A DNA stretch of 64,000 bases from Raillietiella orientalis. Taxonomy: Eukaryota. The stretch lies in the NCBI GenBank assembly GCA_036172245.1, contig JAYWIR010000033.1:372001-436000 (forward strand), given 5' to 3'. A program made the position numbers and the translations under genes. Under the pieces are notes generated by a model. That model worked only from the letters and a program-made list of their open reading frames with translations. It was not told the DNA's origin and did no database searches. Of this stretch, positions 1-63,500 are shown one piece after another (within the stretch, counting starts at the first letter, position 1; each line of letters starts with the position of its first letter).

Positions 1-205
1 GGTGCCAAAGAGCAGGGCACGAATGCTATCGCCCTGCCGTATTCCCCACACCACCGGCACGCCGTACGCTGTGAATCCACTGTAATAAATATTAATTAGA
101 GCGCGGCGCCAACATGAGCGCAGGTAGGAGATAAGGGGGGGTAGGAAGCACATGTGACCCAGGAGCCCCAGCAGGAGATCCTGATTTACGCAGTCGAAAG
201 CCTTG
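1..205 (-). mobile_element. L1/Tx1-like ORF2 RT fragment (outermost host H0)
   Basis: Manual minus-strand translation gives KAFDCVNQDLLL..YLRSCWRRAL..GIRQGDS, the same RT motifs as the other copies, with one frameshift. Confidence 0.85.
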
Positions 206-218
206 TGTGCTCCAGGGT

Positions 219-229
219 GGACGTGTTTT
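219..229 (+). promoter_or_regulatory. Representative conserved 5' terminal motif GGACGTG(T)n (candidate internal promoter or initiator)
   Basis: Present at the 5' boundary of every full-length start (9-10 copies, four families). Function is inferred only. Confidence 0.6.
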
Positions 230-1402
230 CTCGGTGCTCCTCGTGCCAGGAAGTCTCCCCCAGTGCAAGCGTCGTGTGGTTCGCTGGTCGATCAGGCAGC
301 GATGCCTGACGCGACCACCAGGGATAACCAAGGGGCAGCGGACACGCGCCCCCAGAGGCGATGGAGAGCCATGGGGCGGCGGCAACGTCACCCCCGGAGG
401 CGATAAAGGTGGGGGGCATCCGCCCCACAGAATCGGTCCCCGCTACAGCGCGGGCATAAAGCGCCGTTGTGTCGGCGCCAACGCCTGCAGCCGCGGCGGA
501 ATTCTCGGCCTAAAAGGAGGAGGGGTACAACCCCTCATTGTTCTACAAGGTAGGCAATTTTTATTCTTTAGAGAGCGCGCGCGCCTTCTCGAAGGGCATG
601 CGCACTCTCGATGTGAAAGAGGAGGAGCTCAGCGCTATGACCACCCGCAGCGGGATTCAGTACGTTGAGGTCATCTGCAAACATGCAGAGCTAGTCCAAC
701 GACTGCTTAAAACCCCCGTTGTGATGGGGACGCGCAGGCTCCTACCCACTACGGCGGACCGCAGCATAATGGTCCACCAGTTAGGCGTAACCGCGCGAAT
801 GCGCAAAGAACATGTTCGCGCTGCTTTGAAACAGTTCGGAACGGTCCACGCGCAGTGGACGAAAGTTAGTCCCTTCGAGGACTACACAAGGCTGCAACAC
901 GGCCTCACGGCTGCGCGCGTGACCGTTCGGGAGGGCTGCACTCTTCCCCACAAACTGGTGGTCGAAGGCGAAACCGTCGACCTCTGGTATGTGGGGAAGC
1001 CGAAATACTGTGGCTTCTGCAAGACGTCGGGCCACCTCAAAAAGAGGTGTCTTAATGTGCAGTGCCAAGTATGCGGCACAATGGGCCACACGAGGGAGGT
1101 GTGCCCAAAAGCAGCAGTGCGGGTGTTTTCCAAGAGAAACCTTAAAAAACGCTCCCGGCTTCTGCAGAAAAGGCTGGCGGCGAAAGATGCCGCTAAGGCT
1201 GTGCCACCCGCGCCCAAGATTCAGGCCGCATTCAAGACCCCGGCGACCAACGCCGAAAAAGTTGAGGGAGCCGGCCAGGAGACTGGGTGCCAAGTCGCAA
1301 CGGCCAAAAACTCAAAAAAGAGGAGGATGGAAAAGAAAGTCGCCTACCAACAGAAGAAGAAAGAGCAGGGTAGCGCGATAATTAAAGAGTGCGGCGTCAT
1401 TG
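219..1402 (+). mobile_element. Family A element A1, 5' part (5' UTR and N-terminal part of ORF1)
   Basis: Starts with GGACGTGTTTT. ORF 538-1542 has CGFCKTSGHLKKRC and CQVCGTMGHTREVC zinc knuckles and is interrupted at IKECGV by the 3' end of W1. Confidence 0.85.
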
Positions 1403-4126
1403 TTTATTACCCGGTTGCGCCGAAACGTTCATTAAAATATCAACTGAGAACTGTGTTCCCAGGCAAGGGGAACAGAAAATGGGGAGTAGATTTCCCGGAA
1501 CGCAGTCCGGACACACTGAGAGTTCGGAACGGGAGGGGGTAGGACAATAAATAAATAAACTGGGTGGGGGGGTGGGGACAGGGGTATATCGTCTAATTGT
1601 TCCTATTCTCAGAACCGGCGGTGAATGCCGCCGATCTCCATCCTCACTTCTGCTCCAAGATGTGGCCACCCGGCAGCCATTTGCAGGTTGCAGGCTGCGG
1701 TGTCGGGGACCGATGTTAAGACTGCTCGCATATGCAATACGTTGCGGGCCCTGACAATGGCGCGGACGCAGCAGATGATTGCGACGACCGCTCCAAGAGA
1801 AAGTCCGACACGCGTGTAGAAGCGGCTCATCCAATCCAGTGCGGTGTGTCCAGGGTGCAGGAGCGCTGAAGACAGCCGCTGCCACAGCTCCTGGAGGGCA
1901 CCGCACCAAAACAGCAAATGCGGAAGCGATTCCACCGCTCCGCATTTGGCACAGTTCGGGGACGCTACTCCCCCGGAAATCAGGTGCGCCCGCTGGTTGC
2001 AGTACAAACCCCAGTGCACCAGCAGAAAAGCGTCCTGCTTCCACCGAAGGGGGAAGAGAGTCGTGTCCAAACACGCAGAAAGGACCACAAGTTCATCGGT
2101 GGGCACCCCGAGGAGCTCACTTCAACGGAGAAGCCCCTTTGCAAGAATGCGAGGTGTGGTAGCGTCTGCCACTTCGCAAGTCCGCCATCCGCCCAGAAGT
2201 CGGGTTTCGCCTGCAATTTCGCAGGTGATCTCCCACCTCGCCGGCAGGTCACTGTCATCTCGCACCATCAGTGCACACAGTGCTTCGGCGAGTGGCGTAG
2301 CGGCTAGGCGTGTTCATTGGTCCTGGTCTTCCAGCACCTCCCCCACTGGACAGTATGGGGAAAGTTTCACGCAACGGAGTTCCAAACGGGACACATCCTC
2401 TTGCGCTGCCCAGGACGATAATGCTTCCTGCCTCCATGCGTTGAAGTTCGTCGGCCGGCAGGAGATCCACTCATGCTTTCCCAGAAGAGTGGCGAGCTGC
2501 TTCAAAGGGAAGCCGAATCCTCTTTGGGCGCGCTCCGTGCGCACATGCAACGAACGTAGTCCATCGCCACCCGTGCTGCGCCGTAGCAGCAGCCGCGCTG
2601 GAGCACACCAGGGAGTAGTCCAGAGCTGCGCACAAAGTGCCAGCATGCGGAACTGCACTAGCAGTCCGATCCGCTCCAGCGTCGGGATGCCCGATCCTGC
2701 ATCCCGCCGAGGAGCCGCCAAGTCCATCAGGCGTATCCTGGACCTCGCTGGTCCCTACAGGGCGTTACGCAACAGGCGTTGCGCCCGCCGCTTAGCCGAG
2801 TAGGAAGGGGGACAAACAAAAAAGAGGGGACCGAGGAGGGGGGCAACGAAAATGTTCCACACGAAGGCCCGTTCCGACAGGAGAAACCTGCCGCCTTGGA
2901 ACGGGCCCAGAGCAGTCTCGGCCTTGTGAAGGCAGTCCGACCACGCTTCTGCTGGACAGAAGGCGCCCAAGGGAACGCCGAGGTACTTCAAGCACCTTTC
3001 TGTGGGGATCCCCAGGCGGATCCAGTCGGACTGCCCCTCCCACGTAGAGCCAACCGGTACAACGGTTGATTTCGTCCTGTTTACGCTGAGGCCCGCTCCC
3101 CGACGAATAAGCTCGAAGAAGTCCTCGAGCCTGGACGCCAGGGTGGACATAAACAGCAGCAGGAGAAGGTGGTCAGCATAGGCGGCCACGGCCGGTGTTC
3201 CCGGGCAGGAGCTCGGCAGGTTGGCCAGCGTCAGCCTGTACGCCCTCAGCACCAACTGAAAGAAGATGCTGAAGAGCAGGGGGCTTAAGCTGTCTCCCTG
3301 CCTGATACCCCGCCGTATGGGAGCACCGTACACGTGACGCCCGCTGAAAGAGATACAGCATAACGCGTGGCGCCAGCAGGAGCGCAAGTAGGCGATGATG
3401 TGCGTCGGGAGGCCAAGACGTCCCAAAAGCTCCAAAAGGAGGTCCTGGTTTACGCTGTAGAACGCTTTGCAGATATCGACGGCGACCGCTAAGGCTCCCG
3501 GCGTTTTATCGTGCGTTGAACACCGCCGCTTTAATTTGGCAGCGGCGATTGCGGGTGCCTGGCTCTGCTGCGCCACGCGCTGCTGCAACTCGAACCATGT
3601 TCGCGCGAAGAAGAGATTCGCGTCCATGGACCGCCCCGGAACAGCATACGTCTGCTACGGACTTACCAGGGACTCTGCGATTCTGCCCAGACGCGCGACC
3701 CATAGCCTGGAGAACAACTTGACGTCCGAATTCACCAATGTGATCGGACGCCAGTTGCTGAGGTGGAGCAGATCACCGCCTTTCGGCAGGAGCCGCACCT
3801 TTGCTGAGCGGAAAGAAGCGGGAACATCTCCCGTCTCACGCATTAGCTAGGAAAGGCTTAGCACCAGGGGGACGAGCTCCGCCGCGAAGCACTGAAAGAA
3901 CTCCGCAAGCAGGCCATCCTCCTTAGGCGACTTACGCCTCTTCAGGCCCGCTATGGCAGAAGATACTTCTTTCGCCGTGAAGGGCCAATCCAGTTTGGCG
4001 CGTTCCTCCTCGTCGATAGCAGAATTGCCCGTCGGGAGGAGCAGCTCGGAAAGACTGCGTTCCGCGAGCTCCTCTGCGTACAACGAGGAGTAGTAGCGCT
4101 TGACTACGCCGTGTACTTCGGCTGCA
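1403..4126 (-). mobile_element. Family W element W1, 3' part (RT, C-terminal finger, 3' UTR, terminal hairpin)
   Basis: ORF pieces 3847-4167, 3655-3843, 2755-3627 (RQGDSLSP, YADH, KYLG) and 1609-2106 (CAKC..E..PHLLFWC). Hairpin remnant at 1403-1433. Confidence 0.9.
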
Positions 4127-5520
4127 CGCAGGGATGGTGGCTTGGGCCTTCTTACGTTGGAGCGCATCCAACTTCAAACAAGAATTCGAAAGTTAGCCCT
4201 TGCGGCTAGCTTATGGATGACGCCATTGTGCGATCCGGCACGGTACCTCGCCAGAAGAGCGACCGGCTGCGAAGGATTGTCCTCGATCCTCGTGGCCTAC
4301 CAGCGCAGCCTCCCCAACTGTGGTCCCGATTTGCGCCAGATGGTCGCCCTGATGAGGGAGAATACCTGGATCTCCTGCATCCCCGCGAACTGCACTGCCT
4401 GGCTTCAGAAGTCAGCTTCCGCGTGGGCTAAGATCGACGGCACGAGCGAGGCGGAATACAACTGCCTACGACGAGGACCGTACGCTCGACAGCCGCTGCA
4501 GGATATTATCAACACGTCCCGGAAGTTTCTGTGGGCTTCTTTCAGCCCCCTTGCCCCCGTTCTGTCCTCCCTGAAAAACAGTAGGAGCAGCAACGAGCTG
4601 GCATCGTGGGAAGTGTCCTGCCTCATCCGAGGCAGGAAAAAACCTTTAAAGGCGTGGACGACTCGGGAGCTCACTAACGGTGCCACTCCAAGCGTCCCGC
4701 CTCACGGACTTGCGCGCTGGGGAGAGCTGCTCGCAATACCTCCGGAGGAGGTGAAGTGGCCCCCAGCGTGTTGGGATTGCGCCACACTTCCGTTGAAGTG
4801 GCAGGAGACGGCGTTGCTATTTCTGCACTGGGGACTGTTAAGCACAGCACGCCTGTCTCACTGGACACTGGGAAATGTGGATGCCCGCTGTGTCGAGTGC
4901 GGAGAAAGAGAAACATTCCCGCATCTCACCCTCGAGTGTGTCGCCCTGGATATACTCTGGAGTCGAATCGCCCCAATCCTCCATCTTCCAGTAGGCGACC
5001 CTAAGGAAATTTACCGTCGCCTCTTTCTGCGTGACGGCCTGCGCCCCGCCGCGTCTCTAGCAGTCCTCTGCTGCGTGCGCGGCATTGTGCAAAGGTGGCA
5101 CGCCAGAAGAAGAGGCCCAAGATGCAGGGACGCCATCCACTGGACGACGATCTCTTTAGAGACGGCGACAAGGTGGCGTCTACCTTTCAGAGTTAAAACA
5201 GAACTTGACTGTATTCTGAACAGGATGCAAAGGACCGACCCAGGCGCTCAGTGATCCCTTCCCTGCCCCCCCCTTCTCCCCATACAACTGTTTCCCTCCC
5301 CGTTATCTCTCTTTTTGTTTGTTTTTGTTCTAGTTTTCCCTTCCCATGCGCCTCGGGAATGCACCTAACCGGTCTATGCACCGGCAACAGACACGTCAAC
5401 CAAGGTGGGAAAACCAAGTGGTTCCTACAATTAACTTTTGAAAGACTTTATTATCTAATTTTTGTAAAAAATTAGAATAATAAATGCCCCGGCATATCCG
5501 GGTGGCAAACTTCGGCTGCA
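4115..5520. repeat. Target-site duplication pair ACTTCGGCTGCA (4115-4126 and 5509-5520)
   Basis: Exact 12-bp direct repeat. Removing the insert restores the host reading CSAAAEVHGVVKRYYSSLY. Confidence 0.92.
4127..5508 (+). mobile_element. Family X element X1, 5'-truncated, with perfect 12-bp TSD
   Basis: ORF2 C-terminus (RRDGGLGL..CVEC..HLTLEC) ends at 5254, followed by 3' UTR and AATAAA-hairpin. Flanked by ACTTCGGCTGCA at 4115-4126 and 5509-5520. Confidence 0.92.
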
Positions 5521-8500
5521 GCCGAGCATTATTGGCCAGCGTCATCGAGCAGACAAGCCGCTCTAGACTGCCAAACCTGGCGCTCGGCCCTGGCCTTATA
5601 CTCCGCCAGACGCCGTACGTCCGGGCATCGAGGAAAGGTACGCGCCTGCAGATAGGATCTGCTGTTCGCGACACCCTTTCCGAAGCCGCGGGGAAGCAGG
5701 TGCAAGAGGAACCGGCAGCAGAACTCGCGGACCGATCTTTTCAGATCGTCCCAGTCCTCGAGTTCACAGATGGCGAAGCCCCGGGGGTGTTGGCGGAGAT
5801 GCTCCGCCGCCTTCGAATTGCTAAGCCAGTCGGCCGCCAACCTCCAGACATTTATCGGAGGCCCTTTGTCAGGCGGGAGGAGCTCGAACTCCAGTCTAGG
5901 ATGATCCGAAATCGCGGACAGCAGCGGCCTTCTCCGACCTCCTCGTGAGAGCAGGTGTTCAACGAGGAACGCATGGGTAGGCGATCTCTCCATCCCGGGC
6001 TCACTAGCAAGCAAGTTTTGCACGCGCACGGACGCGCATACCTCGCTCACCAGTTGCTTCTCCCTCAAGCGGCATCTCTCCTCTGTTAGCAGGTGGACGT
6101 TGAAGTCTCCTGCAAGGAGGTGCGCCACGTTAGGGCCGGAGTCAGCGAGCCAGCGGCTGCGCAGGCCACCTTGGAATGGAAGTCGCTGGGCGTAATGCCG
6201 GCCGCCGCTCGGCGCGTAGATGTTCGTAACGACCAGGTCGATCGATTCGGACCACTTGAGGACAAGTTGGCCCACACGACCTTCCTCGTCGAAACAAACG
6301 TTCCTCACCGCCTCCGCCACCCTGCCTCGTACGAGGAACGCGACTTGGCACGTGTGCGAGGAGCCTTGCCGCCAGTGTAGCGTCCCGCCCGCGCGCTCTT
6401 CCAGATCCGATGCCTGCCGTACGGAGATCTCATGTATCTCCTGCAGCAGCACCAGATCGAACGCGCGCAAAGCGTTGGCTACCGTCCGCCTTTTGTCAGC
6501 ATCACGTAGCCCGTTGACATTCCAACAGGCCACGCTGACGCGACGAGCGGACGCGAGTCCACGCATCACTGCTGCGGACATGACGGCGTGCTCCTCGCCC
6601 CGTCCGGCGAGAAGTCAGCTGGTAGGAGAGCGGATTGGGAAGCGGAATCGCTCCCGTTCGCCGCCACATCGCGCCCAGCTGAGTCCTGCGAGCCGAGGAT
6701 CATCGCCTCGGTCTCCGTGCAGGAGCCAGAAACGCCTCCGGCAACAGGCTCGTGCTTTCGCACTTTAGCCCGGCGCGCTACCGGCTTACCCCGGGATGCG
6801 CGCTCCATTTGTTTGCACTCGGACTCCACCTCGGAGTCCAAGTGCTTGGCGCGAGACTGGCGTTTTGCCAGTCTCTTTTTGTTTCGGCAGGTGGAGGCTT
6901 GCCCTGCCTGCGCGGGGGTCGTCGCAGTCGCCAACGCAGCTTCCGGAGCTTTGGCTTCCGCAGCCGCCCTCTCGCGCGAAGCGACGGAGACAGAGCACGC
7001 AGCCGTAGTGCGTACTTGGGTACGCACCTTCTTCGGCGTGCTTCTCTTTTGCCTCCCACGCACCTTAAGGATGGGGAATATTGAAGGGTCAACCTTCTTC
7101 TTCCCCTTTGTGGGCGTCCTGGAGACTCGAGTCCAGCCCGCGTCGGGGACGCCCTCCTGGGAGGCCGACGCCTCCCTCAATTGTTTGGCCGGAGATGCCG
7201 GCTCACGTTTCGCGCTCGCGGCGGGAGACGGCTCCGTCCCCGTTACGCACTGCACCTGCTCCTTAGACGATGCGGGCGAAACGCCGGTCATTGCCGTCGT
7301 CCTGCGAGGCGCTATTGCAGCCTTCGCTGCTCGTGCCTTCGGCGTGGAAGACGTGATCTCCACCGCCGTAGGAGGAGATTGCCGTTGAGAGGCAGCTCCG
7401 GGGGTACCCGCGCACGGTTTCCCGTGTGCTCCGCTGGACGCGCAAGCGGACGTGGACGGTTCAGCTTCCTTGATTGAGTGCGTGCCCGCACTCTTAGGCT
7501 GCTTCGAAGGAGGCGATTTGCCCCCAGGGCGACGTGGCATCTTTCCCGTCTGCGCGGTTGTCTGGGATGGTGGCTTCCCTGAAGCATCCGCGTCCGTTTT
7601 CGCGGAAGCTCCACTCGAAGATGCCCCGCCCTTTGCGCTCGATTTCTCCCGTGGCACAACGGGGGATCTTTTCGGCACGGACGATGTCGATTGTTGGCGG
7701 CTTTTCGCCTGCCGCTTCCTCTTCAGCTCGACGCACTCTTTGATGGAGTGGCCGAGCTGTCTACAATAGCGGCAGTTGCTTGAAGGTCACGTCCACGGAC
7801 GGTGGCCCTCGGCACCGCAAACGCCGCAAGCCAGTCGCTGACCGGCAAATTTAAGGTGGACGATCGCATCGCCCACCTGCAAGTGCGGAGGCATTTGCCT
7901 CCTATCCGCAATGGTGACACGCGCCATGGCAAGTCCGCTGTGGAGAGATGCAATCCTTTTGATCGGATTATCTGCTCTCCACAGCGCGTGCACCGTGGCG
8001 AATGCACTTAGTGCAGCGACGAGCACGCGATCGGGCGGGTCCACCTGGACGGCGGATAATCGGACCACGAACGACTGGTCCATGACCGACGGGACGACCT
8101 CCTTCCCGCGGATATTTAGCGGGGTGCATAGAAGGCGCTGGACTAGAGATGCCTCTTTGCGGTGCACCTCCCAGTGTCCGAGCGCGTTAACCGGCATGAC
8201 GGCCTGGAGGTCGTCCTGTCGGACCCCGACGCGCAAAAGCTCGCCCCACAAATTTTCTCCGACCCCGTCGGAGATAGAAGCACTCACCGGATAGCAGAGC
8301 GCAGGCTTGTAGCCATGAGCTGCATATGCCTGCAGCTCTGCTTCGTCGGGCGGTGCTCCGTTAGCTGCCGCTGCCTTGACGACGGAGGCGAAGCTTCTCG
8401 CCGGTGGCGAGACACAGGAATCAGAGGCGGACCGGACATCTGGAGTAGAGTCTCCACTGCCAGTTGCAGCCTCCACATCCATCTTTTGCTGCAGGGGCTC

Positions 8501-8588
8501 CGTGGACATCCCAGTGGGCGCAATCGGGCACACCACACACAAATAGACGGAAAGGAATCACGCTCGAGGAGCAACACAGTACACGTCC
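5509..8588 (-). mobile_element. Family W element W1, 5' part (5' UTR, ORF1, endonuclease)
   Basis: EN ORF 5529-6581 (WNVNG, LQEIH, NIYAP, AGDFN, SDH). ORF1 pieces 7787-8542 and 6566-7678. 5' GGACGTG motif at 8588-8582. Confidence 0.9.
6566..8509 (-). pseudogene. W1 ORF1 (RRM-like region, CCHC knuckles, low-complexity basic tail), frameshifted
   Basis: MSTEPLQQ..GYKPALCY..CGVCGAEGH, then a frameshift near 7790 and a Lys/Ala/Ser-rich tail ending in a TGA that overlaps the ORF2 ATG. Confidence 0.8.
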
Positions 8589-9174
8589 GTGCGGGCGTTG
8601 TGGTCGAGCGTGTTCTCGATGTTGCCGAACGCTGCCGGAAAGAACTCGCCGCTACCGACGACATCCCCTCTGTTGACACAGTCAACAGCGAGGGGAGCGA
8701 GCCGGCGGCGGCGTCCGTCATCGACACCACCATCGATGTCGTAGCCTTCGCGGGAGCAGCGGAGGAGCTGGCAACTTCGTTGCAGCCAGAACCCTCCAAG
8801 GCTGGCAAGAAGGCCGTAAGGCGTCCGGCCTCCCCTCAGGAGTCCCCCACTTCCCAGCCCGAGGTGAAGGCCCGAAGCGCAGCTTCCGTTTCCACGGCAC
8901 CGCGCAAGAAGTCTGGACGTAAGTCCACAAAGCCAAGAAAGCTCGTCTCCCCCGTCGAAGGGGAAGAGATGGCTTCCGCAAGCGAAGGTGCCATGAGCGT
9001 GGGCAACTCTCGGGACCCGTCGCCCGAGAGATTCCCACGCGCGGACACGCAGGGGATGAAGGGGGTGGAGGCCGAACAGGTGCCTCAGGTGCCTGAGAAG
9101 GCCTAAACCCCCATGAACATCCCGCCCGCCTCGCAAGAGGAGGGCTCCCCCACACCTTAATCTTCCCAGCAGTA

Positions 9175-12100: not shown

Positions 12101-12755
12101 GGTGAGGTGAAAGGTTTCAGTTACAATCTCCGGAAAGGAGAAGAAGATAGGAAAGTGGAAGACGGGCCAGTTAACAGACGCTGCGTCCCCGAGTACGCCT
12201 CCCAATGGACTTCGGCGCTGGGGCGGGCTGCTCGATGTTCCCACTGAACATCTGAAGTGGCCCCCGGTGCTCATGAACACTTTCACCATCCCCTTAAAAT
12301 AGCAGGAGTCGGCTCTCCTGTTGCAGCACTGGGGACTCCTCTGCAACGCCCGCCAACACCATTGGACCTGGTAAGCGGTGGACCCCAATTGCGTCAGGTG
12401 TGGGGAACGGGAGTCCCTCCCCCACCTGCTAGTGGATTGTGTTGCCCTTCGGCCCCTTTGGTTTCGCTTTGCCGCGTCCATCGGAATCCCCTACTGCAAC
12501 CCCAGTTACGCACTGAAAGCCCTCTTCGTTGCCGAAACCATTCGGCCAGCGGCCTCGTTAGGAGCTTTATGCTGCTTACGCGGGATCGTCACCGCCTTGA
12601 GCAAGGCTACGGGAGAACAGCGCGACCAGGGTGCCATCCAGCCAGCCTCCCAGTTGCTGGAGAGGGCGTTTCGATGGCCCCACCTGGATCCAGAAATACA
12701 GAAGGAGCTTGCCGGCATCCTGCAAAGGATGCAACGGCCCCACCAGCAACTGTGA
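9175..12755 (+). pseudogene. A1 ORF2: APE endonuclease, reverse transcriptase and C-terminal Cys/His finger; full length but disrupted
   Basis: WNVNG, LQEIH, GDLN, IDH; KAPGEDG, NWRPIT, KAFD, RQGDSLSP, YADD, KYLG; CVRC..HLLVDC. Several stops and a frameshift near 10820. Confidence 0.92.
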
Positions 12756-12942
12756 TCCCTTCCCTTACCCTCCCAACTTTTCTTTTCTTTTTTGTTTTGT
12801 TTTTTGTTTTTTCCCCTCCCCCCTGCTGCCGTGGTGGATCGTACCGGTCAGCGAATCGGTGACCCGGCAGGCTCTGTGTTTCTATGTGCGTGGCTGGAGC
12901 AATGGTCCAGCCACCGCACTTCTTTGTGAAAGTTTATTTTAC

Positions 12943-12973
12943 AATAAACGCCCCGGCGAAATCCGGGTGAAAA
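12943..12973 (+). terminator. Representative conserved 3' terminus: AATAAA + CCCGG-N5-6-CCGGG hairpin + TG + 0-4 A
   Basis: AATAAACGCCCCGGCGAAATCCGGGTGAAAA. Homologues are present at 12 other element ends in the window. Confidence 0.75.
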
Positions 12974-12998
12974 TCGAACGCCCTGCTTACTCGAAGGC

Positions 12999-16794: not shown

Positions 16795-16879
16795 GGACGC
16801 AATTGTTGCGCGCTCCTTGAATGGGGAGTTTTTATTTTCTGGTGTTTCGTGTGTGTTTCGCTGCCGTTGACAGGCAGAA

Positions 16880-18493: not shown

Positions 18494-18501
18494 ACACACC
18501 A

Positions 18502-22300: not shown

Positions 22301-22720
22301 CCCTCGCCGAATCCGGAAGGCAGGCGGTCCAGGGGGAACTGCTCGCAGAAATCCCGGACCGATTCCTTAAAAAGGTCTCAGTCCTGGATATTCCGGAGCG
22401 TGACGCCTCTCAGGTATTCGCGAAGGTGTTCCTTCGCACCTGAGAGTGGCGTCCAGTCCCCCAGCAGATGCCAATCCCTGTATGGCGGTCCGCGAGGCCG
22501 CATCTCGAAAATTAGCCGGGAATGGTCCGACAACGTCGACACAACCCTCCCCCGTTTGCCGACGCGTGAACACAGGTCAGCGTCCAGGAAGACGTGGTCG
22601 ATGCTGCGGACCATTCCTTTTTCACCCGATAACAAGTAGCGCACACGGATGACTGCGCACAACTCGCTCATCGCGTTCACTTGTGTTTCCGGCTCACCTG
22701 TTAGCAGGCGGAGATTGAAA
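19385..22720 (-). mobile_element. Family Y element Y1, 3' part
   Basis: ORF 19594-21273 (YADD, KYLG, finger), RT pieces up to 22179 and EN C-terminal half 22378-22720. Hairpin at 19385-19415. Confidence 0.9.
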
Positions 22721-30200: not shown

Positions 30201-30228
30201 AGCAGCTCAAGACAACTTAAGACAGTCC

Positions 30229-35566: not shown

Positions 35567-35612
35567 CACTGTGCGAGCGCACTAGATCGAACGAATCTCT
35601 GTATGGCGGCTA
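35567..35612 (+). mobile_element. About 45-bp remnant of a family A endonuclease (..IERIS..RL) between two W elements
   Basis: AGATCGAACGAATCTC matches A1 near 9333-9350 and the reverse complement of 59120-59150. Confidence 0.65.
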
Positions 35613-40800: not shown

Positions 40801-40808
40801 GAGAGGAT

Positions 40809-50191: not shown

Positions 50192-50195
50192 AAAA

Positions 50196-52847: not shown

Positions 52848-55760
52848 TTGCAACCCGGGTGCGCCGCGTCGTTTATTATAGCGAATAAACCTATACAATC
52901 TGTGACTGGACCAGCAGTCCAGCCACGCCCTGGAAAGATATATCTTGCCGGGCTACCGGTACGCAGACCGGCGCGGTCGACGTCGGAAGCAGAGGGGAGG
53001 GGGAACGAAACAAAAAGAAAACAAAAAATAAACAAAAATCAGGGAGGGAGCGGGAAGGGATCACAGTCTGCTGGGAGGGTCCGTCATCCTCTATAGGATG
53101 CCGGCAAGCTGTTTCTGTGTGTGTGGTTAGAGATGGGGCAATCGCGTCGCCATCCTGAGGAAACGGGCGGCATACACGTTGGCATCCCTGTCGCTGGATC
53201 CTCCCGTCGCTTTGCTCCATGCCACGACGATCCCGCGTAGGCAGCACAGGGCTGCAAGCGAGGCCGCTGAAGGCAGGGCGTCACAAACGAAGAGGGGGCG
53301 CAAAGCCTCTCTAGGGTTGCCTTTGGGGATCCCCAGAGCTGCGGCAAAGCGTTCCCACAAGAAACAGAGGGCAACACAATTCACTAACAGGTGGATGAGG
53401 TATTCCCTCTCCCCGCACATGACACAATTAGGGTTGACATCCCCCCGCGTCCAGTGATGTCGGCGGGAGCTGCAAGGAAGCCCCCAATGGAACACCAGCA
53501 GTGCCGACTGTTGCCACTTCATGGGGAGGGTGCGCGAGTCCATGAGCACCGAAGGCCACTCGAGATGTTCCTCTGGAACATCCAGTAGCTCTCCCCAGCG
53601 CAACAGTCCATTTGGGGTGGTCCTCGGGGTCGCAGCGTTGGTGAGCTGACCCGTTCTCCAATCCCCGATCTTTTTGGCCCTGCTGGCGATCTTGACAATA
53701 ACCTCCCATTGTGCCCGGACGTCGCTGCCCAGATGTTGCCGTAGGGTAAACAGTACCGCAGCAAGGGAGGTACTTTGTGCTCACGCACTCCTTCAGGGAT
53801 TCTCGATGATTTCTCGGAGCGTGCGGTGGACATGCGGCCCGAACAGAGCTATTCGCTCGTGTTGCGGGCTCTGCTCCAGAATCATCGCCCACGTGCGGAC
53901 GGTTTCCTGGAACCAGGCAGGACCGTTCGCGGGGCGTACGAGGATCCGCGCCGAGTTGTTCTTCACGAGCTTAGCCGCCCTCCGAAGTTGAAGTCCGCAG
54001 TGGCAGATGGGGCTTCGGAGTGCAAAGTAGGACGAGAGTCCTGCATTGTTGGTGGCCCGCTCGACGAGGAGACGTGCAGGGAAGCACCAAGGGGTGCACC
54101 AATTTTCTGCCATCAAGGCAACAACTCGGAACTGGAGCTGTAGCTCCAGCCGCTACAACGTCAGGAGGCCCAGACCACCATCACGACGAGGAGCGCACAA
54201 GTCCGAAAGACGGACTCGGGGCCTCCCTCTGCCCCAAAGGGCGATAATCAGGAGGTCCTTTGTCCTCTTTTTTGACTCCGCTGAGGGGGAACAAACAAAA
54301 AGCAAGGGAAGAAGGAGGGAAGCCGAAAACGCGTTTTACGCCGCGGCCCGTTCCTGGAGGTAGAACCTGCGGTCCTGGAACGGGCCGATTGCCGCCCGAG
54401 TTTTCTGAAGGACGCCGGACCACGCTTCCGCAGGGGAGTAGTCCCCCAACGGCACACCAAGGTACTCGAAGTACCTCACCGTGGGGATCACCAAACGGAT
54501 CCAGTCCTGCTGCCCTGCCCACGCCTCTCCGACTGGCATTACGGACGACTTCGCCCTGTTCACCGTCAGTCCTGTTCCCCGACTCAGCAGGTCGAAGAAC
54601 TCCTCGACCGCCGCAGCCGGGGTGGACATAAGCAGCAGCAGAAGGTCGTCCGAGTACGTCGAAACCGCAGGCGTACCGGGACAATCGCACGGCAGGTGCG
54701 CCAGAGTCTCCCTGTACGCTCTCAGCACCAATTCGAAATAGGCGCTGAAGAGCAAGGGGCTGAGGCTGTCTCCCTGCCGTATGCCGCGTCGCACCGGTAC
54801 GCCGTACACGGTGGATCAACAAAAAAAACATTAATAAGCGCGTCGCGCCAGCTGGAGCGCAGGTAGGCTAGCAAAGAGGCCGGGAAGCCCAAGCGTTCCA
54901 GAAGCTCCAAAAGGAGATTCTGGTCGACGCAATCGAATGCTTTAAGCAAATCGACTGCGACCGTGAGGGCTCCTCTCCCCTCCCGACCATCCCGTCCCCC
55001 ACCGACGGACGCACCGGAATTCCGGTTGCTTATTATGCTCCTTCCTTGTTGGAGCTCTAACCATGTGGAAGCGTGGAATAGGTTCGCCTCCATACTTCGC
55101 CCGGGAACAGCATATGTCTGTTCCGAGCTGATGAAGATGTTGGCGACTCGTAACAGGCCCTCTGCCCACAGCTTGTCTAGCAACTTGGCGTCCGCATTCA
55201 CTATTGTGATGGGACGCCAGCTGTTCATGCTCCTAAGGTCTCCTTTCTTAGGGAGGAGCCGCACCTTTGCTGAACGAAACGTGGTGAGAACGTCATCTGT
55301 TTCGCGGATCAGCAAGGTGAGATGATGTACCAGGGGAGTAAGCTCTGCCGCGAAAGTTTGATAAAACTTCGCAGGCAGGCCGTCCTCCCCTGGAGCCTTT
55401 CGCCTCTTGAGCTTTCCGATGGCCGAGATGATCTCGCAAATCGTGAACGGCTCGTCAAGGTTCCTTTTCTCCTCCTTCCCGATTGCTGGAGCACCTTCCG
55501 GAAGCAGGAGTCGTTAGACAGCCTGCTCCGAAGGCGCCTTGGCGTACAGGGAGGAGTAAAATTTCACTATCCCGCGTTTCTGAGCGGGAACCGAGTGCTC
55601 CCGGTCCTGGTCGTCCAGCAAGCTTGCCGACCCGGATTGCCAGGCTTGCCTCTCGGCTCCCGCTTGATACTCTGCTAACCTGCGCATGTCGGGGGTTCTC
55701 GCGTAACGTCGGGCCTTAAGATAGCACCTCTCGTTACGCGACCCATTCCCGAATCCCTCT
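52848..55760 (-). mobile_element. Family A element A3, 3' part
   Basis: RT pieces 54722-55315 and 54336-54809 resemble A1. Finger ORF 53127-53603. Hairpin at 52848-52877. Confidence 0.86.
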
Positions 55761-55770
55761 CCTCGAAAGC

Positions 55771-58405
55771 GGACGTGTTTTTCCGGCGCTCCGCGAACGA
55801 GCAGCGGAAAGCGTTTTTTTTTGGTTCAGTGTGTGCTTTTTCACATCGTTGGTGTCCGATGGCATCGCTGCCAGAGGTCACCACGATGGAGGTAGGCGTG
55901 AGGGAGGCTAGCCTCCGCCCACGACCTACAGTATCAGGGGCATTCGCCCCGGAATCGCCCTGTTCGCCCAAGACGAGGAGCTGGAGCGCCATGGTCGCCG
56001 CGCCGAGCGCGGAAACCTTGGCTGAGCAGGCGGCTCACTGTGCCTCCGGATATAAACCATCCCTGGTGTATAAGGTAGGAAACCTGTTCGACGGTCGCAC
56101 CGCGCGTGCCTTTGGCAAGGCACTACAGGAATTCTCCGTGCGTGAGGAGGATCTTAACGGCCTCGCCGTACTCAGCAAGGGGCAACGCGTGGAGGTCGTC
56201 TGCAAAGACGTAGCCCTAGCGCAGCGCCTCATCAACACCCCGCTGAATGTGGCTGGCCGAAGGATCCTACCCGTTAGCATGGACCGCACCGTAGTGGTCC
56301 ATCTAACGTGGATCTCGAACCGCATGACGCGCTATGCGGTGAACGCGAAATTGAAGAAATACGGAGATGTGCACGCGCTGTGGCCAAAGCCAACCCTTTT
56401 TGACGGCTATAACAGCCTCTTTGGTGGCCAGGCAGCAGCGCGTGTCACTATGAACAAGGGTGCTGGGTTACCCCACAAACTGGAGGTCGGGAAGGAGCCC
56501 GTCGACCTTTGGTACGTAGGGAAACCCCGCTATTGTAGCTACTGCGATGCAGTAGGGCATGTGCGCAGGCGGTGCCCGAATATCGAGTACCACTTGTGCG
56601 GGGAAAAGGGACACGTCCGTCGTGTGTGCCCAAAACGCCCCACCCCGGTGCCACCTGCTGCCAAAAAGGCACAGCCTAAAAAACGAAAAAAGATCGAAAG
56701 AGCTTATCGCGAAACTAGCCGGCCTTAGCCGCCATCTCCTGTTCCTTCCACCCAGGCGTCGGAGGAAAAACCCGCTGAAGACGCGGGAGAGGAAGAAGGA
56801 TGGAAGCTGGTAAAGGCCAGAAAAGAGAAAAAAGTTCCCCCCGTGGAACCCACGAGAGCGAAGAAAGAAAAGAGCGCAAGAACGAATTAACCCGGTCCGC
56901 GCTCGAAAACTCTTTGCGAGTGCACGGTGTCACTCGAACGGATTGCCGTCCCCGAGGCTGCCACCCGGGGCGACGAGCCTCCCCTCGCCGTTTCCGCCGC
57001 GCCCGAAGTTCGCGACGACGAACCCTCTGTTTGCACAGAGGGTGAGCAGCGCGAAGCGCGCGCCTAAAGCGAGGACGCCGCGTTCGCGCAGGCGACGGAG
57101 GAGCTCCCGGCCACGCTGGCCGAGCGTGAGAAACCCTCACGCAAGGCCGTGCGAAGGCCGGCTCCGCCGAAGAAGGCCCCCGCAGGTGAGTGCGATCTCG
57201 GGGCCGCAAGTGCATCCTCCTCGTCGGAGGCACCCCCCGGTAGACGGAACGCAAGTCCCGATAGCCGAGGAGGCGCCTCCGCTCCACGAGCGAAGAGGAG
57301 AAGCAGGAAGCCGACGGCAGCGTGGGAATCCCGGAGGGGGAAATCCCACGCGCGGAAGTCGTCGAGCAGGCCACCCCCATGGAGGAGGGAGAGCAGGGAG
57401 GCGAAGTCCTTCTTGCCAGCGCGGACCCTGTACAGCCCACACTTATGGAGGAGGGCCAACAGGTAGGCGCGACCCCTCCTGAGTGTGAACCGCCCGACGC
57501 GCCGTCACCGATGGAAGAGGGTAACCAGGTGCTAGAGGCACCTGTCCCTCCTCCTCCACCTAGCGTCCCGCCCCAACAGGTGGCGGACGCCGCACAGCCG
57601 ATTTCCCAGGAATAACACCTGGGCTCGCCTGGCGCCGTCGAATCCGCGTGGCCAGTTGGAACTTCAACGGGCTGCGCGACGACGGCAACAGACGAGATAT
57701 GGCCGACACGCTGCGTGACTTCGACCTGGCCCTGCTGCAGGAGATCCACGTGATCATCTCGGCAGACGTCCAGGAGATCAAGGCGATCGCGGGGGGTCGA
57801 CTGTATTGGCGATGCGGCGCCTGCGACACCTGCGGGATCGCGTTCTTCGTCCAGCCGGCCATCGACGCTGCCGCGAAGGGCGTACGCTTTGATGACGATG
57901 GTCGGGTCGGTCAGCTGATTCTCAGCTGGTCCGATAAGCTGATTCTCAGCTGGCACACCTGATAGCTGGAGACTTCAATCTCCGTCTGCTGTCAGGTGAG
58001 CCCGAAGCACAAGAACGCACTGCGAACGAGTTGTGCGCTGCCATGCGCACGCGCAACTTGTTGGCAGACGCGGAGGGAATGGACCGCAGCATCGACCACT
58101 TCTTCCTAAATGTCGACCTGTGCTCGCGGGTCGGCAAACGGGGAAAAGTTGCGTCGACGCTGTCGGACCATACGAGGATCATCGCCGAGGTTTGTCCGCG
58201 CGACAAAGGACCCCCGTCCAGGGCGTGGCGGCTGCCTGGGGCCTGGACGCGGCTCTCAGGTGCGAAAGAACACCTTCGCAAATTCCTGAGAGGCGTCACC
58301 CTTCGCAGTCTCCAAGACTGGGACCTCTTCAAGGCCTCGGTCCGCGAGTTCTGCGAGGAGTTTCCCCTGCACTGCCTGTACGCCCCGGGCGTACCCGGGT
58401 GACAA
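55771..58405 (+). mobile_element. Family Y element Y4, both termini present but RT and 3' UTR deleted
   Basis: GGACGTGTTTTT start, ORF1 pieces, EN to FPLHCL at 58378, then directly CGCCCCGGGCGTACCCGGGTGA, identical to the Y1 terminus. Confidence 0.85.
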
Positions 58406-59150
58406 CCCCAAATCCTGCAGGTAGGCGATGCAGGGGGAACTGGTCGCAGAACTCCTGGACCGACCGCTTGAAGCGGTCCCAGTCCTGAAGTGTCTGCATC
58501 CTGAAGCTCCGAATAAACGCGCGGAGGTGCTCCGCCGCGTCGGGAAACTTCAGCCAGTCCCCTGGCAGACGACACGCTGACGAGGGGGGGCCCTTGTCGC
58601 GCGGACGCACTTCGAACATGATCCGACCATGGTCCGACAGCTCGGATGGTACCTTGCCGCGCCTGCCCACCCGAGAACATAGGTGCTGATCAAGGTACAC
58701 GTGATCGATGCTGCTTTCCATGGCCGTGTCCCCGGCCAACAAGTTGCGCGTGTTCATTTCTGCACACAACTTGTTGACGCGGTCGTTCAGTGTATCAAGC
58801 GCACCTGAAAGCAAGCGCAGGTTGAAATCACCTGCGATCAGGTGCGCTTTGCGAACTCCTGCATCGGTCAGCCAATCGCGTCTCACGGCAAGGTAGAATT
58901 CCCTTCTTGCCTTCGCCGTCAACGCGTTATTTCCGCTAGGAGCGTATAGGTTGGTGACGACCAGGTCGATAGAGTCGGACCAGCTGAGAGTCAGCTGAAC
59001 GACGCGACCTGCGTCATCGAACCGAATGTCCTTTATTGCGGTCTCGATGGCGGGCCGAAGCGAGAAGGCGACACCGCTTGCTTTCGCGGTGCCGGAACGC
59101 CACAACAGCCGCCCACCCGAGATCCGTTCGATCTCCCGGGCTCGTACAGT
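58406..59150 (-). mobile_element. Family A endonuclease (continuation of A3)
   Basis: ORF 58329-59306: EIERISGG..NLYAP..AGDFN..IDH..SDH..RLPAGFG. Confidence 0.88.
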
Positions 59151-59151
59151 G

Positions 59152-60503
59152 CAGACGTGTTTCCGCGTCTTTCCGCGCCAACGATCGGGCAACTTTGTGC
59201 CTGCGTTTTTGCTCGCACTTGTGTGTTCCTGTGCAATCTGCCAAGTAGCATAGTGCAACATGGCCAGTACACAGGATAGTGTGGAGTAGCAAGCCACTGG
59301 ATGCACTTCAGCTGCACTTGAAGTGGCCGCATCCTCCGTAATGGTTTCCTCGCCCCCGGTGAGGAGTTACGCCGTCGTTACCTCCCAAAGACCAGGACCC
59401 TGCGATGCGGAGTTCCAGGCATATGTGTCATCAGGATGCATGCCTGCACTCCGTTATAAGGTCAGTGGGCCACTTAACGGGAGAATCGGTCGTGAGCTCA
59501 ATGATGAGCTCGTCCGGATAGGCGTTCGCGAGGAGGAACTCCTTGCCATAATGCCTGCTGGCAGCATGGAATATACGAAGATTCGGTGCAAGAACGCAGC
59601 ACTTGTGCAGCGCCTTCTCCGTACGCCGTTGACCATCAATGGCAAGGAAGTCCTACCTACCGCGATGGACGACTCTTTTGTCGTTCAATTGTGCGACATC
59701 GAACCGAAAATCTCCGACCGCGATGTTGTCAGCGTGCTGGCGAAGTTCGGCAAAGTGCACGCCCTGTGGAGAAATCAGAACGCTTTGTAGGATTTCTCCT
59801 CTGTCCACATCGGACAAGCTACCGCGCGGATCACCGTCGCAAACAGGCGTGTTGTGCCTGAGCAGCTGCAGGTGAACGGCACGGTCGTTCACCTGTGGTT
59901 CATAGGCTAGACTCGCGCGTGCGAGCAGTGCGGCAAGGATGGGCACCGAATCAAAGGGTGCCCCTCTCCAAGATGCAGCTATTGCAAAGATTCCGGGCAC
60001 GAAATCAAAAAGTGCCCGGTGATTGCAAGAAAAAGATCCGCAGCGGAAATTCGTCGGGTTCAAGAGACCACTGCACGAAAAGCCGCAGCGGCAAATAAAA
60101 AAAGTCCTCCGCGAAAACTCGGAAAAAACAACGAGCGTTCCGCGGATGAAAAGAAAGCATCCCCTCCCAAAAAGACCCGAAAGTGGAAAGTCACGGCGGG
60201 AAACCAATTAAGAAGATGCGCAAGGGTTTGACGCGTGCCGTGCCCTTCCTCGCTGCCGAACTCGCAGGCACCTCTTCGAGTCAGGTACCAGGAAATCTCC
60301 GTAAGAGCCTGAAGAGGAATGTAGCAAAACAGGAAGATCGCAACAGTGCGAAGACTTCTTGCTCCGTTCCGTTGTCCTTTCCGAGTTCCGGACAGCCCCA
60401 CTGCAGCGCACGCCTCTCTGCAAAGGCTACCAATGCCGTAAAAAGCATCGTCGAGACGAGCAAAAGCACGCTGCATGCACTCGCCTCACCGCCGACTCGG
60501 CAG
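59152..60503 (+). mobile_element. Family W element W5, 5' part (ORF1); same subfamily as W3
   Basis: AGACGTGTTT start. ORF 59323-59790 matches 35054-35569. CEQC..GH..C and CSYC..GH..C knuckles near 59920-60015. Confidence 0.86.
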
Positions 60504-63500
60504 TTTTCCCCAAGTCCCAAAAGGGGAGGGGTAAATTTATTTTTCGAAAATTTAACTAGAAATGCATTCACACTACAGTCTCATTCATACCATTTGCACT
60601 GTCTTTACCACACGAAAGTCGATGAGTTCACAAGTTCTGCACTCATGGTGGGTTACCTGCTGTTCGGTCCCGGGCGTCGTCTTCTATCCTCTTCAGGATG
60701 AATCGAGACGTCCAGGCTTGGATTTTCTCACAGTTTCTAATGCCGATTTCCCTCTTCAGGAGCCCTTGTAGGATCTCCATCGGTGGTGCGGCTCTTCTGG
60801 CTTTCACTTATTTTCTTCCATTGCACAAGTATCGCGGTGATGAAGAGGGTGATGGTCATTCTCACCATGGGATTGTAACAGGGCAAATTACCATCCCCAT
60901 GAAACATCCCGGCAAGGATCTCCATTACGGACCTGGTGTTGAGTCCGATGATTCTTTTCAGAATCAGCCTGTAATGCAACAATGTGGCACACGTCAAGAC
61001 GTGAAGTCTGGTGTCGTTGTCTCCACATGCCGTGCAGTCTCGATCTTCATGTCTTCCCGTATAGTACTGCAATCGGGACCCACTCTGGATTCCTCCATGA
61101 TAAAACATCAGGAGGTCATCCTGGGTGCCCGGCGGAAGGTCATTTCTCCAGAGCATCGTGCCGATCGCTAGCAGGTTGATGCGGTCTCTTCCGAAGCAAA
61201 CGGCGGCTTCCTGGAGGGCACTCATTTCACATTCGTCTTCCCGAATTAATCTTCGGAGGTTTGTTTTGTATACCCTGGTCCACGCGAAGTCGTTGTGGTT
61301 GATCCACACATCGCGGGTCATGTAGATAAACCTTCCTAACATGATATCTATATACCTAAGTATACGAGTGTGATGTATGTACCCTCCTTGTTTCCACTAC
61401 TGGATTCATTGTACGGTAACTCTGGACCGTTGGTGGATCCAGCTCCTCGTGTCCGGCGGCACAGGAAGCATCCAAACGATCACCAAAATGGACTCGTACT
61501 GCCACAGTTCATTACTTCTCGGCACCAACTCGATTTTGTGCTTTCGCACCAGATGTTGCCTCCTCGTCCAGGTTGGGTCGAGTTTTTTCCATTCGCCTGC
61601 TTGGCCTAGCAGCGCAGTCATCAGGCCTTTCGTGTTGTTCAACAACAACGCGTAGGCCTTGTGCGCCGCATATCGCCAGTCATACCAGTGCGTGGCAATG
61701 TCCAGGATGTGTCGCGTATCCATGATTTCTATGGAGTTTGCAAGCGACTTCATCCCGGAACCGCCTTCTTCCCTGGGACGACACAGGGGTTTTAGTCGAA
61801 CTCTTGGGCGATAGTGGCCTCACAGTATTTTTCTCTGCAGCTTGTCGAACTCCCTCGTGGTGTCCTTGTTCATCCTCTCGAAGGCCGCCCCGAAGAGCAC
61901 TTTTGAAAGGGGTACTCCGTTCCACATGTTGGCCTTTCGCTTCATTCAAAGGTCCTTTCGGGTGTACTTGGTTGCTTTCTTGGCCGTTTTCCCTTGGATC
62001 TCGGTCAACAGTAGCTTCGACGCAGAGAGGACGCCAATGTAACACCCAGGTACTTGGCCTTGTTTACCGTTCGGAATCCTCTCCCCGCTAGAGCAAAGAG
62101 ATCGAGGATTCCAACGAGCAAGAGCTGACTTTTCTAGGCGTTGATATTTAGACCCAGGCCTTGATCCATCAGGTCCACCACATCCAGAAACGCTCGTTGG
62201 TTTCTCTCTCCCTTGATAAGGAAGAGTGGATCATCAGCGTTTGCCAGATAAGTAGGACGCTGGCCATCGATTATCATGCCTTGCAATCGTCCGCACTTCT
62301 ATATAAAGGACGACAACGTCTCCATATAGATAACGAACAGCATCGGACTTAGCGAATCGCCCTGTCGGACTCCTCGTTCCATCCTGATTGCTGCCGTCTT
62401 CTGGCCGTTGATCTTGATCCGGCAGTACTGGTTCTGGAGTACCGCCCTCACGAATTTGCTGAAGTGTTCCGGAAGCCCTAGCTTCTCCAGAACCTTCAGC
62501 AGCATCCCGTGGTCGATGGAGTCGAAGGCCTTCTCCATGTCAGTGAACACCAGCACCAGGTTCTCGCCGACGTATCCACTGAGTCCAACAGTGGCCTGGG
62601 CACACTTGACATTGTCCGACATGTGTCGTCCTGGGACTGCAAATGTCTGGAACGGAGAGATCAGCCTCGACATGACCTTGCCTAAGCGGTTGGACCAGAT
62701 CTTCCCCAACCACTTGGCATCGGAGTTTAGAATCGAGATTGGCCTCCATTGGGCGATCTCGGTAGAGTCGCCTCCTTTCGGCAGCAATCTCATCCGACTC
62801 TCGTAGAAGGACTGAGGTAGTCTGCCTTCTTCCCGGATGCAGAGGGTCAACTGGTGGAACAAGCGCAGGTAGGCGTGCAGGTACCGCTGATAGTGCGTGA
62901 TGGGTACACTGTCAGGGCCTGCTGCCACGTCCTTGCGAAGTTGCCCAAACGCAGTCTTCACCTCTTCTTCGGAGAACTCCTCCTCCAGTCTGTTCCGCTG
63001 GAGGTCGTCGGTCCTCTTCTCGAGATAGCTCAAGAAGGCCTGTTGACTAGAGCGACACAGCTGTTGTCGCCTGAAGTGTTTCGTGTAATGCCTGTGAAAG
63101 GCATCCACGATGTCCTCAGACGACTGTCGCTTTCGGCCGTCGTACTGGATGCAGAAGATATCTGTTGCCAGATTTCTCTTCTCCAGCACGCCGACTTCCC
63201 CTTTTATGTTATTGAGGACGTACCCACTCTCGTACTGATCGAAGTACTTTGAGAGGGAGCGATCTCGGATGTTCAGCTCCCGGTACGCCTCTTGCCTCGA
63301 GCGCCTATCCCCGAACTGCATGTTCGCAAACAGGTGTATCCTTTGTTTCAGGCTGTCTCAGTCGGCGACTCTTCGGATTGTTGTTGCCTTCAGAATCGTC
63401 TCCAGGACAGCCTGATTTCCGGGATGGGTTTCGAACCAGGCAGGCATGCTGATGAGCGCCGCCCTGGTGCCTTGCCTTCGCCGAGGATTGTCCGTTCTTA

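Follow-up and report, generated by a model that had tools for sequence, protein, structure and literature searches.

The window examined here is a stretch of 64,000 nucleotides of Raillietiella orientalis (contig JAYWIR010000033.1, positions 372,001 to 436,000 of the forward strand), and its positions 1-60500 are a single array of L1-like non-LTR retroelements (lacking long terminal repeats, LTRs) that are nested in one another. We will focus on the orientation of the inserted elements (guests) relative to the elements that received them (hosts). The array comprises 18-19 elements in four subfamilies, and 15 of its 17 host/guest relations, with all junctions examined, are antisense. Four recurrent host positions hold 11 of these 17 relations, all of them antisense, while elsewhere four are antisense and two are sense, so that the bias is mostly a property of a few sites. 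For this antisense nesting at recurrent positions, targeting of the insertions seems a better explanation than a strand effect of a general kind. The explanation that we favor, with a probability of roughly 0.5, is that specific positions of the host sense strand are recognized at the time of insertion, as in the site-specific long interspersed nuclear elements (LINEs) of the apurinic/apyrimidinic endonuclease (APE) type, because this accounts for the recurrence, for the fixed orientation at each site and for the use of different sites by different subfamilies.

Positions and orientation of the insertions

Host positions are expressed on two rulers, R5 (55500-58400) and E2 (9050-12975), which are copies from the window itself; the fragments were placed on them by nhmmer, and the strands were checked by tblastn with the window's own open reading frames (ORFs) and one distant full-length ORF2. 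The most used position, beta (E2 ~1015, in the linker between APE and reverse transcriptase, RT), received Gs, G1, G2, G3 and G4 in five events. Position gamma, at E2 ~1190 and about 175 bp beyond beta, received W1, S and possibly W6 (two or three events); alpha, in ORF1 at R5 ~1450, received Q1 and Q2 (two events); and delta, in the APE domain at E2 ~266-290, is represented by K and by the 5' flank of Q2b (two events). If 17 insertions fell by chance on an element of 5.55 kb, at least 5 of them would share a 20-bp bin with a probability of 1e-6 at most.

The use of the sites follows the subfamilies, which are Q (Q1, Q2, Q2b, T, V, K), W (S, W1, W6, TW, Z0), G (Gs, G1, G2, G4) and P-like (P1, P2, G3). 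Indeed, W elements are found in gamma of Q, Q elements in alpha and delta, and G and P-like elements in beta, and in the trees the subfamily of the guest mostly differs from that of its host. At gamma, the window contains a 17-mer three times, with a match on the other strand in each case, and the 3' end of a W element lies at all three, the W copies having three different 5' extents. The beta events mix the subfamilies of host and guest (G in W, G in G, P-like in G, G in P-like) and vary in their tail, nick offset and 5' junction. The 10-mer TCGAACGGAT, with at most one mismatch, is found at alpha and at delta, which are the positions that Q-subfamily guests use (9338, 18665, 35587, 41921, 56934 and 59122); its count in the window, 8 against 4 expected, is not significant. 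Hairpin-prone hot sites were considered and rejected: 12 site/copy tests were made, all on copies without an insertion, and a fraction of 0.25-0.97 of the element folded equally well or better.

The original prediction held that the host sense strand is the one nicked and used as primer, and this is borne out at every antisense 3' junction, where the sense strand runs into the reverse complement of the guest 3' end. At 19385, for instance, the junction reads ...CCAGGTTTCGGCG / TTATCACCCGGG, with the slash at the joint. No pairing of the primer with the guest 3' tail was seen by eye on the junctions.

The antisense relations are those of P1 and P2 in H0, Q1 in P1, Q2 in P2, W1 in Q1, S in Q2, Gs in S, T in Y, Z0 in T, G1 in Z0, G2 in G1, G3 in G2, G4 and K in G3, and F in K, whereas V in Gs and TW in Z0 are sense, each with a perfect target-site duplication (TSD). 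In this count, Q2b is joined to Q2, W6 is left out as a possible duplicate and F is included; parsing W6/Q2b as a separate composite gives 17/19 antisense. The strong bias of about 15 in 17 first reported for this region is therefore reproduced as a total, while the list of pairs behind it is not, since in several cases it counts both ends of a single insertion as separate junctions. The significance of the excess depends on how many of the same-site events are independent, as can be seen from the following counts (antisense fraction, two-sided binomial):

All relations: 15/17, p=0.0023
P2 and Q2 counted as copies of P1 and Q1: 13/15, p=0.0074
Same-site same-subfamily pairs collapsed too: 11/13, p=0.022
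Beta cut to two events: 9/11, p=0.065
Each distinct host position once: 8/10, p=0.11

A binomial test on de-duplicated junctions of the whole genome, restricted to young copies, had been proposed as a check on the bias; the binomial values obtained here for the window support the bias for the full count and lose significance in the last two rows, where the collapse is hard.

Layout of the nest

The nest has the following layout (window coordinates, strand and feature, with its basis in brackets):

1-206, minus: H0, RT fragment of the outermost host (E2 1817-2022), off the left window end (nhmmer)
207-1401, plus: P1 5' part, from the 5' start to ORF1 at R5 ~1450 (nhmmer, tblastn)
1402-4126, minus: Q1 3' part (hairpin at 1409; E2 3924 to 1175), antisense in P1 at alpha (nhmmer, junction)
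4127-5509, plus: W1, 5'-truncated (E2 2572 to the 3' end), antisense in Q1 at gamma (nhmmer, TSD)
5510-8602, minus: Q1 5' part (E2 1212 through APE and ORF1 to the 5' start), with T in the APE trees (nhmmer, tblastn)
8603-12975, plus: P1 3' part (R5 1473 to the 3' hairpin at 12952) (nhmmer, junction)
12987-14082, plus: P2 5' part, following P1 head-to-tail with a copy of the P1 TSD between them (nhmmer, junction)
14083-16792, minus: Q2 3' part (E2 3924 to 1159), antisense in P2 at alpha (nhmmer, junction)
16793-19384, plus: S 5' half (5' start to E2 1015), full-length element, antisense in Q2 at gamma (nhmmer, junction)
19385-22720, minus: Gs 3' part (hairpin at 19390; E2 3924 to 592), full-length element, antisense in S at beta (nhmmer, junction)
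22721-24267, minus: V, 5'-truncated copy, sense in Gs (nhmmer, junction, 3'-module scan)
24268-26725, minus: Gs 5' part (E2 602 to the 5' start), with a tandem repeat (nhmmer)
26726-29698, plus: S 3' half (E2 1024 to the 3' hairpin at 29679) (nhmmer, junction)
29699-30207, minus: Q2 continuation (E2 1191 to 676) (nhmmer)
30208-30232, no strand: 25-bp filler at a rearrangement joint (Q2 E2 676 / W6 E2 1291) (junction)
30233-32924, plus: W6 (E2 1291 to the 3' end), tandem duplicate of S or third independent gamma insertion (nhmmer)
32925-35570, minus: Q2b (E2 1189 to the 5' start, with an internal deletion of E2 466-910) (nhmmer)
35571-35614, plus: Y, 44-bp APE fragment (E2 ~290-330) of a plus-strand host, with a flank as beside K at delta (32/44 identical to the G3 APE)
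35615-40807, minus: T (3' end to R5 ~900), antisense in Y (nhmmer, tblastn, junction)
40808-42015, plus: Z0 first part (5' start to ORF1), antisense in T (nhmmer, junction)
42016-45821, plus: TW, twin-priming product, sense in Z0 by its 3' end (nhmmer, junction)
45822-47273, plus: Z0 second part (ORF1 to E2 1021) (nhmmer)
47274-50193, minus: G1 3' half (E2 3920 to 1022), antisense in Z0 at beta (nhmmer, junction)
50194-52847, plus: G2 5' half, antisense in G1 at beta (nhmmer, junction)
52848-55759, minus: G3 3' half (E2 3921 to 1002), antisense in G2 at beta (nhmmer, junction)
55760-58400, plus: G4, 5' half and only the 21-bp 3' hairpin, antisense in G3 at beta (nhmmer, junction, trees)
58401-59147, minus: G3 continuation (E2 1023 to 266), sister of the P1 APE in trees (nhmmer)
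59148-60500, plus: K (5' start to R5 ~1610), antisense in G3 at delta (nhmmer, junction)
60501-64000, minus: F, a different LINE family with its 3' end at 60501, antisense in K, off the right window end (Pfam, tblastn)

Seven hosts are split, namely Q1 by W1, P1 by Q1, Q2 by S, S by Gs, Gs by V, Z0 by TW and G3 by G4. The ruler coordinates of the two flanks match where a host was cut (Q1 1175/1212, S 1015/1024, Gs 592/602, G3 1002/1023 and, on R5, P1 1450/1473), and in trees of four separate regions both halves of each split element share one subfamily. The TSDs are perfect for W1 (11/11 bp, CTTCGGCTGCA at 4116-4126 and 5510-5520), V (11/11 bp, GGAGATTGAAA at 22710-22720 and 24273-24283) and TW (13/13 bp, CGCAGTGACTTCA at 42003-42015 and 45822-45834), and they are degraded for P1, Gs and G4 (~16 bp in the last). 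The H0 flank TCGAAAGCCTTGT recurs as TCGAACGCCCTGC at 12974-12986. P2 starts 12 bp past the P1 3' end (12976-12986), which is the arrangement of a double head-to-tail insertion at a reused site or of a tandem duplication.

Several details of the map that accompanied the original prediction are replaced by this layout. The units which it took for single elements, A1 (194-4112) and A2 (12974-16787), each consist of a plus-strand 5' fragment and the 3' part of a minus-strand element. The insertion of its unit X1 (5510-8602) into W1 is not one, since this unit is the 5' continuation of the minus-strand element at 1402-4126, which itself hosts W1 with the perfect 11-bp TSD. Its list of junctions also lacked the real insertion of Q1 in P1 and left out F. 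Both sense cases were said to have aberrant 5' junctions, which applies to TW, with its 5' inversion, and not to V, which has an ordinary 5' truncation and its 11-bp TSD.

TW is a clean twin-priming (5' inversion) product. It has an inverted 5' segment (E2 3212 to 81, minus, ~42016-45134) and a 3' segment (E2 3202-3924, plus, 45085-45821) that overlap by ~10 bp; it is an ordinary example when set beside L1 twin priming, with no difference seen, and it shows L1-like integration by the elements of the array. At 89% identity, the inverted APE of TW matches that of its host Z0, 1.2 kb distant. The unit at 52848-58400 was also considered as one twin-primed element and rejected, since G3 is P-like and G4 is of the G clade, and both flanks of G4 are G3 with a TSD. 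The same reading is possible for the unit at 47274-52847 (G1 and G2), and it would remove one antisense event.

The elements that have no right-hand part are exactly those of the chain H0 > P2/Y > T > Z0 > G1 > G2 > G3 > K > F. This is what is expected from a nest cut by the window edge, and so the array continues rightward. The open chain is nine levels deep, its strands alternate strictly, and it leaves the window. When the placing of 17 insertions was simulated 100,000 times, with a chance proportional to the exposed length, 0.75% of the runs reached a depth of at least nine, a figure that takes no account of how the window was chosen. New copies seem to prefer recently inserted ones.

The stretch between 29.7 and 35.6 kb can be read in two ways. 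In the first, 27006-30232 was duplicated in tandem to give W6 and Q2b, and Q2 lies in P2 with a target deletion of ~720 bp. In the second, W6/Q2b/Y are a separate composite, and a deletion joint with 25 filler bases connects them to Q2 at 30207-30232. The separate composite is in better agreement with the levels of identity, which are ~92-93% between W6 and both W1 and S, but 77-93%, and mostly 83-85%, between the Q2b flank and Q1 and Q2. The 44 bp beside the Q2b 5' start are an APE fragment, and the same flank (32/44 bases) lies beside the K 5' start in G3.

A few further features of single copies can be added. The tract 2150-2899 of Q1 is 99.2-99.6% identical to ~14825-15575 of Q2, the rest of both copies being at 82-95%, and it looks like a recent gene conversion. 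The tandem repeat of Gs is a 57-bp unit repeated 2.9 times at 25240-25402, within ORF1. The 5' half of G4 is complete, stops ~10 bp short of beta and is fused straight to the 21-bp 3' hairpin.

Proposed site recognition and its alternatives

In the mechanism that we favor, target-primed reverse transcription into resident copies would build the nest. Insertion recurs at a few positions (alpha, delta, beta, gamma) rather than being spread over the host, and nicking of the host sense strand with priming at each of these positions would leave the guest antisense. New copies would tend to enter the latest-inserted copy, which would give the nine-level chain of strictly alternating strands. The anatomy of the elements, their orientations and the recurrence of the positions are observed; we infer that the same-site events are independent and that the sites are recognized by the element's own endonuclease or ribonucleoprotein (RNP). 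Among the causes first proposed for the bias was a strand-asymmetric motif, and this is the type of cause with the most support, with the concentration of antisense relations at four positions in its favor and the missing common motif against it.

Several observations weigh against site recognition. A common nick motif is not visible across the sites, beta is only ~70% conserved between the copies that were hit, and the window holds seven beta sites without an insertion. The gamma core is near-palindromic, so that sequence alone would not set the orientation there. Counted per position, eight antisense and two sense cases remain (p=0.11), and there is no sign of a sense-strand preference beyond the sites themselves. 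Gene conversion is active, the identity of A1 and A2 ranging from 70.6 to 99.6% in 250-bp windows, which makes the subfamily identity of flanks an imperfect proof of independence, and the P1/Q1/W1 and P2/Q2/S blocks could be of common origin. Six relations have one junction each (Z0/T, G1/Z0, G2/G1, G3/G2, K/G3 and F/K), the other flank being off-window or not identified; the alternative for these guests, an insertion in the next outer host, requires a truncation that coincides exactly with the junction. The evidence moreover comes from one window, no second locus having been found.

A somewhat unlikely alternative is that insertion is unbiased and that the orientation is sorted afterwards, sense guests, as direct repeats with their host, collapsing by homologous recombination, and antisense guests, as inverted repeats, persisting. 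Recombination between copies is indeed active, as the A1/A2 mosaic indicates, and the internal deletions (Q2b without E2 466-910, G4 passing from beta to its 3' hairpin) could be the footprints of such collapses. Both sense insertions have perfect TSDs, so that one of the three perfect-TSD insertions is antisense, against 5/5 of the two-flank insertions with a degraded or absent TSD (Fisher p=0.107, 8 events). An even split of orientations among young perfect-TSD insertions had been named in advance as evidence against a bias; the observed one antisense and two sense lean this way, three being too few, and the Fisher test on eight events is not significant. Survivorship leaves the recurrence at the same positions unexplained, and chimeric elements with discordant 5' and 3' subfamilies are not seen in the trees. 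It is unlikely that transcription of the host sets the orientation, either by preferential nicking of the displaced sense strand of an R-loop or transcription bubble, or by transcription-coupled repair removing sense intermediates on the template strand. In its favor, each antisense 3' junction has the host sense strand as its primer, the depth of the nest exceeds that of random placing (P=0.0075), as if the youngest, still transcribed copy were favored, and F, which belongs to another family, also entered antisense; for human L1 in genes, PMC5717806 reports an orientation bias that is based on repair. Against this stand the weak GC skew of the sense strand (-0.006 to 0.049), the folding tests, in which the hot positions display no unusual single-strand folding, and the guests, which are mostly of another subfamily than their host; neither recurrence at the nucleotide level nor subfamily-specific sites would be predicted.

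The bias would also shrink if a handful of antisense insertions were the real events, with segmental or tandem duplication making further copies of them, gene conversion blurring these copies, and chance accounting for the rest of the excess. This is quite improbable, even though homologies spanning junctions do link 194-4112 with 12974-16787, 4121-6013 with 28315-30204 and 31542-33208, 18081-22258 with 45980-50154, and 48580-52364 with 54145-57934, and though hard collapse yields the non-significant 9/11 and 8/10 given above. The boundaries of the copies are canonical 5' starts and 3' hairpins of elements, and the W copies have different 5' ends. An origin of the two tandem-looking units by unequal crossing-over was rejected, since G1 groups with Gs (support 100) and G3 is near P1, so that these units are not mutual copies. 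That fold-back or chimeric long reads created the alternating strands in the assembly is hardly credible: the region is highly repetitive, but the closest inverted pair is 88.95% identical, where fold-back arms would be near-identical, and TSDs and canonical element ends are found at the junctions. Self-targeting and antisense insertion could finally share one cause, if the youngest copy were still transcribed and the RNP of a sibling that is active cut its displaced sense strand where a few positions are exposed, so that every new copy would go in reverse into the youngest resident one and the array would grow as an alternating onion. We regard this as improbable; if true, it would be a way for centromere-associated LINE clusters of the Zepp type to seed and extend themselves.

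If sibling subfamilies home to defined positions of one another on one strand, the growth of a cluster follows from ordinary target specificity. The array also shows that an orientation bias, however striking, may come down to a small number of sites that are used repeatedly. For the annotation of such arrays, the reconstructed nest concretely predicts which sequence should follow on the right of the window, namely the remainder of F (minus), K from R5 ~1610 to its 3' hairpin (plus), G3 from E2 ~266 to its 5' start (minus), G2 from E2 ~1015 to its 3' end (plus), G1 from E2 ~1010 to its 5' start (minus), Z0 from E2 1022 to its 3' end (plus), the 5' remainder of T (minus), the remainder of Y/P2 (plus) and H0 upstream of E2 1817 (minus).

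Element anatomy, known systems and relatives

A full element is ~5.55 kb long and carries ORF1 (CCHC) and then ORF2 (APE, RT and a putative zinc region) on the same strand. At 9172-12749 and 45045-42892, APE is followed without a break by RT on one strand, the order of ORF1 then APE is seen in Q1, S, G2 and G4, and ORF1 and ORF2 are co-stranded in uninterrupted stretches. A Pfam scan of 30 long ORFs returned RVT_1 in 8, Exo_endo_phos in 3, zf-CCHC in 3, zf-RVT in 3 (weak) and no match in 14. The best E-values were 6.5e-15 for the APE endonuclease (PF03372) and up to 6.5e-22 for the RT (PF00078). The cysteine-rich C-terminal region of ORF2 (zf-RVT, PF13966) reached at best 24.6 bits, under the curated cut-off of 27.5, and the ORF1 knuckle (PF00098) scored 23.3 and 21.8 bits in two ORFs (cut-off 20.8) and 18.0, under the cut-off, in a third. 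Among solved structures, human L1 ORF2p is the best relative of both the APE-linker pieces (E=1e-28) and the RT pieces (E=2e-25), and a match to the L1 endonuclease (E=4e-06) was also obtained.

The 5' start of a complete element reads ..GGACGTGTTTT. The 3' module, AATAAAYG-CCCCGG-loop-CCGGGT followed by 1-5 A-rich bases, is kept in 10 of the 10 aligned 3' ends; its stem is kept in sequence, with a compensatory change in none of the five predicted pairs. A pattern scan of the window for this module found 12 ends, all previously mapped, and no hidden short insertions; the 3' end of T itself is degenerate. No poly(A) is present at any element end, and the window has no A/T run longer than 12. 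The elements are L1-like (APE-type) non-LTR retrotransposons: they have the endonuclease and RT, an ORF1, TSDs of 11, 11 and 13 bp, 5' truncation (W1, V) and 5' inversion (TW), and differ from this class by the missing poly(A). The G+C content is 54-63% up to ~60 kb and 51-54% beyond, in the flank, and 92 pairs of stretches, 64-93% identical and involving both strands, emerged when the window was compared with itself. In that flank, the F protein is ~23-27% identical to the ORF2 of the array, and the F 3' end reads AAATAAATTTACCCCTCCCCTTTTGGGACTTGGGGAAAA.

Self-nesting LINE clusters mark putative centromeres of several green algae. The array resembles those of Zepp and ZeppL (Chlorella, Coccomyxa, Chlamydomonas), where L1-type LINEs are described as entering their own copies and forming a dense cluster with a G+C content above its surroundings; this likeness is one of cluster features. 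Passages of PMC3446292 give Zepp 61% GC against 53% for the genome, and passages of PMC8226300 describe Zepp nesting that leads to tandem arrays of mostly 5'-truncated 3' ends. In contrast to such arrays of truncated ends in one orientation, most copies here are full length and reach the canonical 5' start, and they lie antisense to their host at fixed positions, without poly(A).

With the site-specific APE LINEs (R1, SART/TRAS and the Tx1 group), the array shares insertions that hit a single nucleotide position of a repeated target time after time and keep one orientation there, and also the head-to-tail double insertion at a reused site, of which P1-P2 may be a case here. For R1Bm, the sequence specificity of its endonuclease is the subject of PMC1919474, and for SART1Bm, its targeting is that of PMC7265360. 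The array differs from these systems in that its targets are sibling copies with several sites, the site being set by the subfamily, and in that conservation of the target sequence is clear only at gamma. As for human L1 in genes, the likeness is the antisense excess relative to a transcription unit, which PMC5717806 ascribes in part to transcription-coupled repair at insertion; here the host is a retroelement rather than a gene, and the bias is concentrated at a few positions. In a literature search whose reach excluded the original Zepp papers, antisense, position-specific nesting of LINEs in LINEs was not described.

Rfam and tRNA scans returned no RNA genes, and no relative of the locus was confirmed in the metagenome collection, the prokaryote genomes or the viral contigs. 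The nearest database protein is the metagenome protein P0010 (68% identity over 54% of the query); the other matches of the protein search are distant LINEs at 22-27% identity, and the protein atlas gave generic zf-RVT/RVT clusters. The public run X1, distinct from the unit of that name above, contains 0.22 of the sampled words. Its contigs are short, and the 228 that were placed, at 90-99% likeness, display only same-strand skips of ~5.5-6 kb between paralogous copies; no strand-changing joint is among the contig joints listed, and the nest is neither checked nor extended by them. Contigs of this run match 41001-61000 at 90-99% in short pieces, so that related copies exist in another public data set.

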